NCBI GenBank assembly: GCA_028282845.1
Contig: JANQGY010000015.1
Coordinates: 77,372-141,371 of the forward strand
Reading direction: 5' to 3'
DNA: 64,000 bases
From: a bacterium
GTDB lineage: Bacteria; Fidelibacterota; Marinisomatia; Marinisomatales; JAHJCW01
The notes under the pieces were generated by a model. It had not been told where the DNA came from and searched no databases. It saw only the letters and a program-made list of their open reading frames with translations. Made by a program: the position numbers and the translations under genes. Shown here piece after piece: positions 13,117 through 46,096 of this stretch (its first letter is position 1; every line of letters starts with the position of its first letter).

Positions 13117-13225
13117 GTTGCATAAAATAGCGTGCGAAAGTTACTGCATTACTTTTTTTTACAAAAGTAATATACTCTACACTTTAGTGAAACAATTTCT
13201 CATAAATTCAATTAAACATAACATC

Positions 13226-14146
13226 ATGAAAAATATATTTATAGTTACAATAATTACAATTGGAGTGATAGCCTTGATGTCTCAGACCAAAGATACTAAA
13301 TACAATAAACTTACGCCTGAAGAAGAACAAGTGGTCATTCACAAAGGTACCGAGCGTCCTTTCAGCGGTGAATATGACCTCCATTTTGAGAAAGGTACTT
13401 ATTTATGTAAACGCTGCGATGCACCGCTTTACCTGTCGGAAGATAAATTCAATGCTCATTGCGGTTGGCCTAGCTTTGATGATGAAATAGCAGGTGCCGT
13501 AAAGCGATTACCCGATCCCGATGGTTTTCGGACTGAAATTGTCTGCGCAAATTGCGATGCCCACCTCGGACACGTATTTGCAGGCGAGGGTTTTACTGAT
13601 AAAAATATTAGACATTGTGTTAACTCAATCTCCTTAAATTTCGACCCTATGAAAGTTGCTAACAAAACCGAAAGAGCGCTATTTGCCTCAGGATGTTTTT
13701 GGGGCACCGAATATCATCTATCAAAGGTTGATGGTGTAATCTCGACTACAGTCGGTTACACCGGTGGTCATAAAGCTAATCCCACTTATCAGGAAGTATG
13801 CACCGGAAATACCGGACATGCCGAAGCAACTGAAGTGATCTACAACCCAAGCAAGGTTAGTTACGAAGAACTTGCCCGACTATTTTTTGAAACTCACGAT
13901 CCGACGCAAGTAAATCGCCAAGGACCCGATATTGGCACGCAATACCGGTCGGCAATTTTTTATTTAGATGATGAGCAAAAGCAAACTGCCAAAAAATTAA
14001 TTGCATTACTTGAAGAGAAGGGATTGAAAATCGCTACCGAAGTAACCGAAGCAGCAAAATTTTGGGAAGCTGAAGACTACCATCAGGATTATTATGACAT
14101 TAAGGGCACTACCCCCTATTGTCATTTTTATACTAAACGATTTTAA
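13226..14146 (+). CDS. msrAB: Fused peptide-methionine sulfoxide reductase MsrB-MsrA with N-terminal hydrophobic signal/anchor
   Basis: The MsrB part has CxxC...CxxC zinc motifs and RHCVNS. The MsrA part has GCFWG. The track start 13118 is TTG and overlaps the tRNA-Arg region; ATG 13226 gives MKNIFIVTIITIGVIALMSQ. Confidence 0.92.
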   Translation: MKNIFIVTIITIGVIALMSQTKDTKYNKLTPEEEQVVIHKGTERPFSGEYDLHFEKGTYLCKRCDAPLYLSEDKFNAHCGWPSFDDEIAGAVKRLPDPDGFRTEIVCANCDAHLGHVFAGEGFTDKNIRHCVNSISLNFDPMKVANKTERALFASGCFWGTEYHLSKVDGVISTTVGYTGGHKANPTYQEVCTGNTGHAEATEVIYNPSKVSYEELARLFFETHDPTQVNRQGPDIGTQYRSAIFYLDDEQKQTAKKLIALLEEKGLKIATEVTEAAKFWEAEDYHQDYYDIKGTTPYCHFYTKRF

Positions 14147-15710: not shown

Positions 15711-16076
15711 TTATAGAATATCAACAAGGAAAAGCGAGTAAATACCTATTCCAAATGATAGAATCGAAGTGGCGCGATGGGTTAGCTGCATTGTTCTATT
15801 CTCCGATTTATTGCTAATTAAAATAGAGCCCGATACTACCGAAACTATAAAGAACGCGACGGTGAACATCGCTGTTAACAGCGGGAGAAATGTTATTTCC
15901 CAAGTTTTAATCTGCACATAAACAGCTAAGATGTAGATCAAGCCCAAAGCAAATGAAGTTATTTTGTGAAGAGTTGAAAGTAATGGTTTGTACGGCATGC
16001 CCTTGCGCGACATCACGACGCCCGACAAAATTGAAAGGATACTTAAAATCAACATCCATATAACTGCATTATTCAT
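15711..16076 (-). CDS. 4-TM membrane protein (121 aa)
   Basis: Four hydrophobic segments; no recognisable motif. Confidence 0.65.
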   Translation of the reverse strand: MNNAVIWMLILSILSILSGVVMSRKGMPYKPLLSTLHKITSFALGLIYILAVYVQIKTWEITFLPLLTAMFTVAFFIVSVVSGSILISNKSENRTMQLTHRATSILSFGIGIYSLFLVDIL

Positions 16077-16088
16077 AATTTTACCTAA

Positions 16089-16931
16089 TCATCTAGTTTG
16101 TGCTAATGAATCAATTATATTTTTACATCCACCGTTATTCAAATGATCCGTATGTTCCTGTATAGTATCAAATTTTTTGCCACAAATTTTTTCGCATTCC
16201 ATTTCATAATCTGATGCTTGATAAAACTTCTCGATAAGCTCATCAAATGTAGGATTACTTAGTGAATATTTCCACTCGCCTTTTTTTACTAACTCTAAAG
16301 TAATCTTCCACATTGCTGCCGCTAATGCACCGCAACCGCTGCCACGAAAACCAATTCCTCCGGCAAAACCGGCAACCATCACGGCTTCCTCATCGGAACC
16401 ACCCATTCTTTTGACCACTTCGGAAGCACAGCTTTTAGATTCCTTGGCATTAGGTGGCAATTCCAACGCCAGTCCCTGATGCGCGACTTCAATGGCATCA
16501 GGAGCCCATTTTGCTGCGAGATTAAAGCATCCGATCGCCTTACCGGTGAGCATATATTTTGCAAGTTGAAGCTTACTGCCAAAATCAGTTTCGGTTATTT
16601 CCTCACATTCGGTACTATTGGATTTTGTTAAAAAAGACTCTACCATGTGCTTAGTGGCAATTAGCGCCATTGCGATTGCTTCACCTTGTTCCTCTTTTCT
16701 TCTATAAGCTTCAGTCCCTAAAGCTAGCGCCGCACCCCACAGCATACCGCATTGATAGCCTTGTTGGTAAATACCTCCGGCAAGCGGATCAATAGCCTGC
16801 TCTTCAGCTTCTTTTGGATTACCGAACTCACGGTTCAGTATATAACTGAAGGTCCTGCTACAAGTACCTTTCTTTAGAAATGTTCTTCTTACTTTTAGTT
16901 TCGACATCTGATTACACTTTGATAATTTCAC
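16089..16931 (-). CDS. C_GCAxxG_C_C-family putative redox protein (two-domain)
   Basis: It contains QCGMLWGAALALG and GSGCGALAAAMW cores with flanking Cys residues. GTG 16931 overlaps the upstream stop (GTGA); ATG 16907 is an alternative start. Confidence 0.75.
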   Translation of the reverse strand: MKLSKCNQMSKLKVRRTFLKKGTCSRTFSYILNREFGNPKEAEEQAIDPLAGGIYQQGYQCGMLWGAALALGTEAYRRKEEQGEAIAMALIATKHMVESFLTKSNSTECEEITETDFGSKLQLAKYMLTGKAIGCFNLAAKWAPDAIEVAHQGLALELPPNAKESKSCASEVVKRMGGSDEEAVMVAGFAGGIGFRGSGCGALAAAMWKITLELVKKGEWKYSLSNPTFDELIEKFYQASDYEMECEKICGKKFDTIQEHTDHLNNGGCKNIIDSLAQTR

Positions 16932-42791: not shown

Positions 42792-43478
42792 ATGGATCAT
42801 AGCTTAGCAAAAAACGGAGATAACCAACTCATTATATTGCGCTTGACTTGCGTAATAATCTTCGCAATTGCGATGGGAATATTGGAAGCTATTTGCGTTG
42901 TTTATATTCGACAAATAATTTTCCCGCCCGATGGCATTATCACTTCAACACCAAGCGCTAATTTTAATTTCTCTTACGAGATAATCCGTGAATTAATGAC
43001 AATAATCATGCTGACTACAGTAGCTATGATATCTGCCTATAATTGGCGAACCAGACTCGCAATGTTCTTTTTAGCTTTTGGCACCTGGGATATTCTCTAC
43101 TATATCGGACTAAAAATATTTTTGAATTGGCCTGCCAACATCATGGAATGGGATACACTATTTTTGATACCAATCGCCTGGTACAGTCCGGTCATCGTGC
43201 CCGTATTAATAAGTGTTTACTTCATTGCAGGCAGTATTTTTATCATTACCCATGAAGGCAACGGCACTAAACTTAAATTCACTCCAATGGTCATTATTTT
43301 ACAACTAATTGCATTTTGTATATGGTTATTTACGTTTATGAATAATACATCGCAGATTACTGAATTTGGCTACACTGATGTAAAATATTCATGGATTCTA
43401 TTTAATGTTGCTTTGCTATTTGGTATTGCAAGTTTACGTTTATCTTTAACAAAATCTACAAAAGTTGACAATGTCTAA
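42792..43478 (+). CDS. Polytopic membrane protein (hypothetical)
   Basis: 228 aa with about 6 hydrophobic helices. ATG start. Confidence 0.65.
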
Positions 43479-44595
43479 ATCAATTGGTATTCTAACAGCC
43501 GGTGGAGATAGTCCCGGTTTGAACGCTGCGATTCGAGCGATCGGTAAAACGGCGGAAAAAACCTATAATATGAATGTTATCGGATTTCGCGATGGTTTCA
43601 GAGGATTAATGGAAAATAGATTTGTCAGACTTCATAGTCAGGAACTATCGGGAATTCTTACGCATGGCGGTACTATTCTTGGCGCTAACCGTGATAAACC
43701 GCACAAAATGCCGGTTGGCGATAAAATTTTAGATATGACCGATGTACTGGCACAAACTTATCATAAGCATCATCTTGATGCCTTAATTTGTATCGGGGGT
43801 GGTGGCACGCAAAAAAATGCCTATAGATTATTGAGAAAAGGATTGAATATTGTTACTCTTCCTAAAACTATTGATAATGATGTTTTCGGTACGGATTTTA
43901 CATTTGGCTTTGACACTGCCATGGGCATTGCAACTGCGGCAATTGACCGCCTGCACAGCACCGCGCACAGCCATCATCGAATTATCGTGGTTGAAATAAT
44001 GGGACATAATACCGGTTGGCTTACCCTCGGAGCGGGTTTAGCCGGCGGAGCTGATGTGATACTAACTCCTGAGATTCCCTACGACAGCGACATAATCGCT
44101 GCTGCGATAAAAAACAGACGGAAAGAAGGTAAAAATTTCAGCATCGTTGCGATAGCTGAAGGCGCCGTTACTAATAAATCAGCTAAAAAACTAACTGCTG
44201 TTCAACAGAAATATGAATCAGCCTCCAATAAAGATGACAAGGAAAATCTTAGAGTAGAATACAAATTAATCGAGAAAAAAGTTACAGGACAAACCATGAA
44301 ATTATCCTCAAAGCTTGAAGAGTTAACCGGATTGGAATCGCGCGTAACTATTTTAGGACATGTCCAAAGAGGCGGCACACCCTCGGCTTATGATCGAGCG
44401 CTCGCAACACAGCTTGGCACTGCGTGCGTTGATCTTATTGAACAGGAACAATACGGTATCATGGTTGCTTTAAATAATGGCAAAGCCGAGCCAATTCCCT
44501 TAAAGGATATTGTCGGAATTAGAAAAACGATTCCCTTAGATCATCCATGGATTGTGAGCGCACGAGAGATCGGTGTCTGTTTAGGGGATGAATAA
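43471..44595 (+). CDS. pfkA: 6-phosphofructokinase (phosphoryl donor not resolved)
   Basis: It has [26 protein letters not shown] and GHVQRGG. ATG 43471 is used because the track start is TTG. Confidence 0.92.
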
Positions 44596-44611: not shown

Positions 44612-44640
44612 AAAAAAGGCTCAGATAACTGAGCCTTTTT
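44612..44640. terminator. Bidirectional Rho-independent terminator between convergent genes
   Basis: AAAAAA-GGCTCAG-ATAA-CTGAGCC-TTTTT. Confidence 0.75.
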
Positions 44641-44654
44641 GTATAGTTTAAAAT

Positions 44655-45701
44655 TTATTTTGAATTTAGAAACTTCTCTCTCTGATCCTTGAAATATTGA
44701 TCATTGGGTCGCAATTTAATACATTCATCAATTACCTTAATCGCTTCATCCGTTCTGCCCATCTTCCATAATATTTCGGCTTCGGTATCTTTATAACCTG
44801 CTACAGTTTCTCGGTCATAGGCCTTTGTCATTTTAATAGCATCTCGAATTTTTTCTAACGCTTTTTCAAGATTCATTTCCAATTCACTCATGCGCCAGGC
44901 AAAACTATTGTAAATACTTGCCGTATATGATTTGGTTAATTCCAATAGATTGATATATCGCCGCCAAGCATCAGCTTCGGCTTCTTTATCCTTTTGTTTC
45001 CTAAGAATTGAAATTACGCTTCTAAATGCGTACTGTGAATATTCACTATTTAAATTTTCCGCAATAAATATTTCAAGATCAGTTGCATCCTCAGCAATAA
45101 ATGAATTGAGTTCTACTAATTTATAATATACAAAATCCTTGTCACCTACACCGGCATCGGCAACCGTTTTCCAAACATCACGTGCGGCGACAAGATCACC
45201 CTTATCTTCATATTTACTTGCTAATTCCGTCCATAACTCAAAGTTATCCGGATCATTAGTGGTCTTACTTATGAGATCAGGAATTGTGCCTTCTCCACTT
45301 TGGATCCTCTTCAATTCTTTAAGAAATACATTGGATGGTCTATAACCGATAATGCGGTCTATTTCCGAACTATCCTGATCAACAAAAACAATTGATGGGA
45401 ATCCTCTGATATGATAATGATCCACTAAAGCTTTGCCTTCTTCCTCTTCAAGCCGCATTTTAACAGCAAGCATGTTCTCATTTAGAAAATCTATTACATC
45501 AAGATTTGTAAATACATCGGCATCCAGCCGGACACACCAGCTTCACCCGTCTTTTACAAAGTCTATCATTACATATTTATCACCGGCTGATTCTAATATT
45601 TCAGCAAATGTTTTACTTTTTTCCCATTTTATGGAAGGTTCTTTTTTCTGACATGAAAATAGAATTAGTAAGGCCAATAATATTGACAATCGTTTCATCA
45701 T
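44655..45701 (-). CDS. Thioredoxin-fold plus TPR lipoprotein with in-frame TGA at the CxxC position (candidate selenoprotein, U-S-W-C)
   Basis: The frame is continuous from ATG 45701 to stop 44655 except for TGA 45545-45543. The N-terminus is MMKRLSILLALLILFSC (lipobox), followed by ...MIDFVKDG-U-SWCVRLD... in a Trx fold. The start overlaps the upstream stop (ATGA). The track shows only the 272-aa distal part. Confidence 0.68.
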
Positions 45702-46096
45702 TTATCCTTTAGTATATTGATTATTTCCTTAGGAGGTTTAACCGCCTTTCCGATTTTATTGATGAAGGAATGAATGGTCTCGCCATTTGCGCACAAAATA
45801 TTACCCGATTTCATAACTTCATATTCAATTTTTAGTTTTGATCGAGGTCGATCTTTAATTTTTGTAATTATTATAATATCATCATCAAATTTAACCGGAT
45901 TTTTATAACTGCAATTACAGGCTATAACCGGTAAATAATACCCTGCTTTTTCTATGTCGGGGACACTGATCCCCACAGAGCGTAATAATTCCGTTCTTGC
46001 TTCTTCAAAATATTCAAAATAACGGGCATAATATACCACTCCCATTTGATCAACATCGCGGTAATAAACGTGTACTTTATGCTTATATTCAATCAT
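45698..46096 (-). CDS. Acyl-CoA thioesterase, YbgC/4HBT family
   Basis: VHVYYRDVDQMGVVYYARYFEYFEEARTELLR is a hotdog fold with the catalytic Asp. Confidence 0.85.
   Translation of the reverse strand: MIEYKHKVHVYYRDVDQMGVVYYARYFEYFEEARTELLRSVGISVPDIEKAGYYLPVIACNCSYKNPVKFDDDIIIITKIKDRPRSKLKIEYEVMKSGNILCANGETIHSFINKIGKAVKPPKEIINILKDK

Follow-up and report, generated by a model that had tools for sequence, protein, structure and literature searches.

Bacterial selenoproteins of the 'thiol:disulfide interchange protein' type, which belong to PF13098 and carry a UxxC motif, were described by Kryukov and Gladyshev (2004) and are listed in a review (PMC13188914), and a survey based on Global Ocean Sampling (GOS) data counted 'Trx-like 2 (cd02953)', a group of the DsbD-gamma type, as well as other thioredoxin (Trx)-like selenoprotein groups (PMC2398784). 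In E. coli, the selenocysteine insertion sequence (SECIS) in its minimal form consists of a 17-nt upper stem-loop (nt 15-31), which follows 11 nt after the UGA and has G23 and U24 in its loop (PMC8659212). The gene described here belongs to the UxxC thioredoxin-like selenoproteins, which had already been catalogued between 2004 and 2008. It is encoded on the minus strand of a stretch of 64,000 nt (positions 77,372-141,371 of contig JANQGY010000015.1, assembly GCA_028282845.1), the whole of which is referred to as the window in the following. With a probability of about 0.9, it is a genuine bacterial selenoprotein gene in which a UGA codon is read as selenocysteine (Sec, U) and which has been missed by public annotation. 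A first-pass annotation of the window had proposed that this UGA specifies Sec in place of the first Cys of a thioredoxin CxxC motif and that callers of open reading frames (ORFs) truncate the gene, a proposal that is supported by the conservation of the codon, by the hairpin that follows it, and by the Cys residues with which it aligns.

The frame in question opens at an ATG that overlaps with the TGA with which the 4HBT thioesterase ORF upstream of it ends (ATGA), closes at a TAA, and is interrupted only once, by the TGA at codon 53 (Table 1). In the mechanical ORF list, it is represented by two pieces, one of 52 aa (45543..45701) and another of 272 aa (44655..45473), and Met77 (ATG 45473), with which the larger piece begins, is not conserved among homologues. 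The start of the complete product, MMKRLSILLALLILFSC, has the pattern of a lipobox-containing signal peptide, and the predicted Sec codon lies in the stretch MIDFVKDG-[TGA]-SWCVRLDAD. Both the continuation of the frame upstream through a single TGA to ATG 45701 and the lipoprotein signal supplied by the additional N-terminal codons had been put forward in the first-pass annotation; the former is borne out when the sequence is read directly, and the latter is compatible with the lipobox pattern seen there. Matches obtained by tblastn at 80 related loci extend over residues 1-348 of the product, and the TGA is identical in the independently assembled Logan assembly SRR20820733.

Among 5.8 billion predicted proteins searched, 89 relatives came up, most of which (265-272 aa, about 76-78% query coverage) are truncated at the same place as the ORF in the window, the start choices of gene callers in homologues leading to products of 262-297 aa. 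A minority is full-length (336-374 aa), and in full-length relatives, such as P0005, P0008, and others, a Cys is located opposite the TGA in the motif DGCSWC. When one genome per GTDB species was scanned for homologous genes, 80 loci were obtained; two of them are cut off at the codon and 78 were scored. Among these 78 species-level relatives, the aligned codon is TGA in 63 and TGC or TGT in 15. That the TGA occupies the position of the first redox Cys had been claimed beforehand, with an alignment of homologues as the suggested check, and the Cys present there in full-length homologues and in 15 species agrees with this claim. All scored loci keep an open, conserved frame to either side of the codon, and the TGA form persists in 63 other species down to a protein identity of 31%, with neither frameshifts nor extra stops. 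It is also present in two complete Fidelibacterota chromosomes, CP070656.1 (L016) and CP070638.1 (L062). Mostly 45-64 codons lie N-terminal of the site, the C-terminal parts comprise 290-330 codons, and W26, D47, and F48, all upstream of the TGA, are invariant among homologues. Titled loci are mostly labelled as Candidatus Neomarinimicrobiota, Marinimicrobia, Fidelibacterota, or 'FCB group', and a few as Lentisphaeria or Gammaproteobacteria. Collinearity between the window and its closest loci, one of which is from a Neomarinimicrobiota single-cell genome, extends beyond 10 kb, with 50-79% amino acid identity, which points to an origin of the window in this phylum. A neighbour-joining tree combined with parsimony places Sec at the root and counts at least 10 changes to Cys; the gene family spans the Marinimicrobia phylum, with Sec as the inferred ancestral state that was replaced by Cys on these occasions.

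Downstream of the codon, a small hairpin is conserved, whose core corresponds to RNA positions 16-28 (the U of UGA being position 1) and begins 12 nt after the UGA, and which an optional two-pair extension enlarges to positions 14-30 (17 nt). The spacing between UGA and hairpin is invariant, the alignment of the species being free of gaps. All four pairs form in 64 of 64 TGA sequences, and every pair shows compensatory double changes, C-G being replaced by U-A and G-C by A-U or U-A. None of 500 shuffles reaches the observed pairing values, pairing falls from 86% to 15-54% when the 3' partner is slid along the sequence, and RNAalifold, when applied to the alignment, returns precisely the helix at 45530-45518 and no other. 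Among the Cys forms, each hairpin position is paired in just 6-10 of 15 sequences, the mean local free energy of the hairpin is -1.3 kcal/mol as compared to -7.0 kcal/mol in the Sec forms (p = 1.4e-7), and only the two Cys forms nearest to the Sec clade of the window still fold the hairpin. As the hairpin overlies the stretch that encodes the conserved peptide R-L-D-A-D, it is of interest that some of the changes alter the protein in ways that keep the pairs, with Arg CGA opposite Val GUC rather than Ala GCC, or CGU-UUG opposite Asn AAC. At eight loci (L003, L021, L034, L049, L074-L076, and L078; positions +16 to +30), Arg CGG is changed to CGA or CGU and the opposing Ala to Val (GUC), Asn (AAC), or Ser (AGC). 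The position of this Ala is free to vary in Cys forms, where K, E, and Q are found. The codons used in the hairpin are rare in this genome of 36% G+C, CGG and CUG accounting for 11% and 8.7% of their codon families, respectively.

In its distance from the UGA and in the G of its apical loop, the geometry of this hairpin resembles that of the E. coli element. The SECIS-like element could be identified because species were compared; folding of the window alone is uninformative. A SECIS-compatible hairpin 3' of the TGA had been expected in the first-pass annotation, and such an element is indeed present, but it is neither of the two hairpins that had been drawn, the conserved register being 45530-45518. 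The primary candidate, GUGUCC-GGCU-GGAUGC at 45535-45520, can be drawn but displays no covariation and is matched by 208-272 of 500 shuffles. The alternative, AGCUGG-UGUGU-CCGGCU immediately after the UGA, can be drawn as well and is part of the minimum free energy fold in the window, yet it shows no covariation either, and between 13 and 436 of 500 shuffles match it, depending on the measure. When the surroundings of the TGA are folded from the window alone, a check that had also been suggested, these two hairpins are indeed preferred, in a fold that is itself unremarkable by the z score given below.

Three full-length database entries (P0079, P0056, and P0075) show Trp at the Sec/Cys position. 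For P0079, the DNA was checked (locus L085, 1334-2389) and has a TGA followed by an intact hairpin (CGAC/GUUG); the Trp in P0079 is an artefact of translating the in-frame TGA. In P0010 (locus L086, 1046-2062), a close relative, a TCA codon (Ser) is found at this position, resulting in S-S-W-C, and the hairpin is broken, A17 being opposite C27. This Ser codon may have replaced Sec in a variant or, the contig being short (2.6 kb), may be an error.

With Cys in place of the TGA, the product matches Pfam Thioredoxin_2 with 2.2e-12 and 47.6 bits (cutoff 27), and the Thioredoxin_7, DsbH, and DsbD models of Pfam and NCBIfam all remain under their cutoffs on it. The lipobox pattern L-F-S-C17 of the window product occurs in its strict form in 57 of the 75 homologues with complete 5' ends, the others having mostly a looser lipobox or a type-I-like signal, and predicted signal peptides occur throughout the family. 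In the PDB, sequence matches of the Trx domain are 2KUC and DsbD-gamma, and the UxxC aligns with the WCgpC of 2KUC. The domain combines a CxxC-type site at the start of helix 1 (U53-S-W-C56) with a cis-Pro loop, and both P102 and C56 are invariant in alignment A1. In the C-terminal domain, Pfam TPR_2, TPR_14, and TPR_8 match at residues 307-335, and the motifs NSFAWRM and DTEAE..W are invariant in this part, which is similar to tetratricopeptide repeats (TPR). A structure was modelled with AlphaFold2 (AF2), on the basis of a 51-sequence alignment, for P0005, the closest full-length Cys homologue (60% identical). The model (predicted local distance difference test, pLDDT, 94.3; predicted template modelling score, pTM, 0.85) consists of a thioredoxin fold at about residues 25-133 followed by 13 TPR-type helices, the signal region forming an N-terminal helix of low confidence. 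In Foldseek comparisons with the PDB, the Trx domain of this model finds DsbD-gamma (template modelling score, TM, 0.74-0.77) and DsbH as best matches, the C-terminal part finds TPR superhelices and the TPR part of YbbN, and for the whole chain E. coli YbbN/CnoX (3QOU, E = 1.5e-6) comes first, with Salmonella 3QDN also being found. Judging by its N-terminal sequence, the 348-aa product is probably exported and lipid-anchored, and by analogy to its structural relatives it most likely functions as a thiol:disulfide (selenylsulfide) oxidoreductase in the periplasm.

Table 1. Coordinates of the predicted selenoprotein gene, its elements, and adjacent features in the window.
Feature	Position	Strand	Details and basis
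Predicted full selenoprotein coding sequence, 348 aa + stop	44655..45701	minus	ATG 45701-45699, Sec-UGA 45545-45543, TAA 44657-44655
In-frame UGA, predicted Sec codon, residue 53	45543..45545	minus	TGA/Cys alternation, Cys-aligned homologues, thioredoxin-fold relatives in the PDB
Predicted redox motif U-S-W-C (UxxC), residues 53-56	45534..45545	minus	C56 invariant in alignment A1
Predicted signal peptide with lipobox (MMKRLSILLALLILFSC; Cys17 = 45653-45651)	45651..45701	minus	Read from the sequence; pattern in homologues
Thioredoxin-fold domain, residues 41-130; cis-Pro P102 = 45398-45396	45312..45581	minus	Pfam Thioredoxin_2
C-terminal all-alpha TPR-like domain, residues ~140-346	44664..45284	minus	Pfam TPR, AF2, Foldseek
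Conserved SECIS-like hairpin core	45518..45530	minus	5' arm CGGC 45530-45527, loop UGGAU 45526-45522, 3' arm GCCG 45521-45518
Truncated ORF from gene finders, 272 aa, begins MLAVKMR	44655..45473	minus	Same sequence as P0001, a database protein (NCBI and Logan)
Upstream 4HBT thioesterase gene	45698..46096	minus	Pfam 4HBT_2, 2.3e-17; TGA stop overlaps start of selenoprotein gene
Terminator-like hairpin GGCTCAG-TTAT-CTGAGCC, A and T runs at its flanks	44613..44640	no strand	Between selenoprotein gene and pfk

Several observations weigh against a selenoprotein gene. Neither tRNA-Sec nor selA, selB, or selD was found in the window, in the 10 kb past its right edge, or in the related loci (1.29 Mb): ARAGORN detected no tRNA-Sec in the window and the 80 loci, tblastn of the 1.29 Mb with approximate E. 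coli SelA, SelB, and SelD queries gave matches to IF2 and LepA only, and NCBIfam profiles revealed no Sec machinery gene among ten size-matched ORFs of the window. This absence says little, because a small part of each genome is covered. For three SAR406 single-cell genomes, an 'orphan SelD' was reported, with no SelA or SelB and no selenoprotein genes being detected (Peng et al., 2016). The universally conserved stem comprises 4 bp and is thereby below the textbook length of a SECIS, and in the RNA of the window alone (45500-45545) two competing hairpins are favoured, with -10.3 kcal/mol versus -7.0 kcal/mol for the conserved core, a preference encountered in 8 of the 64 TGA sequences, the window included. 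Folding of the window alone is not unusual when compared to shuffles (z = -1.19), Rfam gives no SECIS or tRNA-Sec at gathering thresholds, nor at E <= 10 around the site, and function and location of the protein are deduced from homology and patterns only. Regarding the machinery, source data for metagenome-assembled genomes (MAGs) from the Challenger Deep list selA (K01042) for Marinisomatota at 0.8276 (24/29) and selD (K01008) at 0.7931 (23/29), with selU in none, and across all 586 MAGs of this study selA, selB, and selD are present in 49, 47, and 50%, respectively (PMC8938466). One MAG of this set, B10T1B10, corresponds to locus L026, which has the TGA form. The Sec trait has been reported for the phylum, and the 'orphan' calls for SAR406 are probably due to incomplete genomes and to the gene not having been annotated.

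If the UGA were read through without selenium, by near-cognate or suppressor decoding (as Trp, Cys, Arg, or Gly) aided by the hairpin, or in a reassigned code, one would understand that Sec machinery is not seen in the sequence searched, that SAR406 single-cell genomes show an 'orphan SelD', and that some database entries give Trp at the codon. Such a readthrough seems improbable. Of the 58 genes in the window, 20 end in TGA, among which are infB, gpsA, accA, and a gene for a fadD-like ligase, and therefore the code is not reassigned; a reassignment had been considered unlikely in the first-pass annotation as well. The Trp entry that was checked is artefactual, the DNA having TGA, and selA and selD are reported for about 80% of the Marinisomatota MAGs. 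Furthermore, leaving one Ser variant aside, the site alternates with Cys alone and does so at a redox position, which is a signature of Sec, and the position of the hairpin and its G-containing loop suit a SECIS of the SelB type.

Even less credence is given to the TGA being a real stop, in which case two products would be made, a 52-aa fragment containing the signal peptide and, from Met77 onwards, a cytoplasmic protein of 272 aa. Although gene callers yield such ORFs and an ATG is present at 45473, this Met is not conserved, the starts chosen by the callers vary (262-297 aa), and the 272-aa piece is devoid of beta1 and of the active-site start of the thioredoxin fold. The invariance of W26, D47, and F48 in frame upstream of the TGA, the single uninterrupted protein with Cys at the site in 15 species, and the restriction of hairpin covariation to the TGA forms also argue against two separate products. 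A pseudogene or a sequencing or assembly error would imply that the gene is decaying or that the codon is truly TGT or TGC, from which TGA differs in one nucleotide, and the contig is metagenome-assembled. However, such an origin has hardly any likelihood and can be discarded because the independent Logan assembly has the identical TGA and because TGA is conserved over 63 other species, to 31% protein identity, without frameshifts or extra stops; in addition, purifying selection is seen both before and after the TGA, and compensatory changes keep the hairpin. In favour of a selenoprotein gene, the locus shows a frame conserved around the UGA, orthologues with Cys, and a covarying stem-loop that is weak or lost in most Cys forms.

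In the selenoprotein model, the UGA at 45545-45543 would be recoded to Sec during translation, SelB with Sec-tRNA(Sec) being recruited by the CGGC-UGGAU-GCCG hairpin 12 nt past the UGA, and Sec insertion would presumably follow the canonical SelA/SelB/SelC/SelD pathway. The product would present a thioredoxin domain of the DsbD-gamma/DsbH type, with its U-S-W-C site and cis-Pro loop, fused to a TPR-like domain of about 200 aa. Outside the cytoplasm, where it is predicted to reside, the protein might act as a reductase, with the TPR domain holding client proteins and with electrons provided by an inner-membrane donor of the DsbD/CcdA type. A more far-reaching interpretation, which we offer tentatively and regard as rather doubtful, is that we are dealing with an ancestral, phylum-wide selenoprotein of SAR406, which would be the client for the 'orphan' SelD, an extracytoplasmic, lipid-anchored, CnoX-like 'seleno-chaperedoxin' in which amino acids change in favour of a small SECIS.

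Some other genes in or near the window deserve mention. An MsrB-MsrA fusion (Pfam SelR and PMSR) is encoded at 13118-14146 on the plus strand, and its likely start, MKNIFIVTIITIGVIALMS, resembles a membrane anchor or a signal peptide. A methionine sulfoxide reductase that is exported depends on a reductant in the periplasm, and the fusion could therefore, speculatively, be a client of the Sec-Trx-TPR lipoprotein. About 4 kb past the right end of the window, a 170-aa protein of the Thioredoxin_9 family is encoded (L083, 6244-6756). Downstream of the selenoprotein gene, the hairpin at 44613-44640 separates it from the convergent phosphofructokinase gene (43465-44595) and is probably a bidirectional terminator. 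A scan of the window and of the related loci for other conserved ORFs bridged by a TGA returned the present selenoprotein family alone, the rest being off-frame shadows or true gene ends. On the minus strand of the window, an ORF of the C_GCAxxG_C_C family (16089-16931; Pfam, 4.7e-20) stops at a TGA, and 12 nt after it, in the same frame, there is a hydrophobic ORF of 121 aa (15711-16076). A review of 2026 names 'C-GCAxxG-C-C form 2' among the selenoprotein families. The stretch 15711-16931 was considered as a TGA-bridged selenoprotein gene and rejected, as it looks like two genes, the second of which starts with an ATG of its own, and the surroundings of the TGA do not resemble a redox site.

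As to its significance, this is a solid discovery at the level of annotation with some evolutionary and ecological value; the understanding of the mechanism of Sec decoding is unchanged, and specialists on selenoproteins will not be surprised. Public translations of the family either lose the signal peptide and the active site (265-272 aa) or give Trp for TGA, and hundreds of database entries could be corrected with a profile model based on the 78 loci, as individual clusters at 90% contain up to 326 sequences. With this gene, selenium would have a role in redox reactions of the cell envelope in an ocean phylum that is abundant and largely uncultured, and the 'orphan SelD' call for SAR406 is probably explained by this selenoprotein family. 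With at least 10 independent replacements by Cys and decay of the hairpin afterwards, the family offers a natural series for studying Sec/Cys exchange and the co-evolution of SECIS and protein.

No selenoprotein has been linked to Marinimicrobia in the searchable literature, and the product reaches the cutoff of no curated NCBIfam selenoprotein model, the best score being that of TsoB (NF045694; C-terminus, 61.4 versus 805), with PDO_seleno_TRX (TIGR02187) at 16.7 versus 185. CnoX is a cytoplasmic protein, and CnoX of E. coli is not known to have a CxxC motif. With the CnoX/YbbN chaperedoxins, the selenoprotein family shares the order of its domains, the thioredoxin fold being N-terminal and the TPR helices coming after it. 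However, identity is 13-14%, TM is 0.25-0.31 with a root-mean-square deviation of 22 A, the orientation of the domains is different, and the protein of the window has a signal peptide and a UxxC; sequence searches with the product (Pfam, NCBIfam, PDB) gave no CnoX/YbbN match. The similarity to DsbD gamma and DsbH lies in the Trx domain (23-27% identity, TM 0.74-0.77), in predicted export, and in the CxxC-type site with a cis-Pro loop, whereas Sec in place of the first Cys, the TPR extension, and the lack of the DsbD membrane domain set the protein of the window apart. As in the fdhF SECIS of E. coli, the hairpin is situated within the ORF at a close distance from the UGA and has G in its loop, which in the window is at positions 20-24 and contains GG, but the E. 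coli element possesses a bulged U17 and the loop GGUC, whereas in the window the loop is UGGAU, no bulged U is conserved, and 4 bp are universal. In comparison with the PF13098/cd02953 selenoproteins, membership in the Thioredoxin_2 family, Sec as the first residue of UxxC, the existence of Cys orthologues, the marine origin, and a SECIS in the coding region 3' of the UGA are held in common. In contrast to them, the protein of the window has a predicted lipoprotein signal and a TPR domain of about 200 aa, and among the loci sampled it is restricted to Marinimicrobia/Fidelibacterota. What sets the family apart is its fusion to a TPR domain, its predicted lipoprotein signal, its spread across the phylum, Sec as both the majority and the probable ancestral state, and a very small SECIS that is interleaved with a peptide motif.

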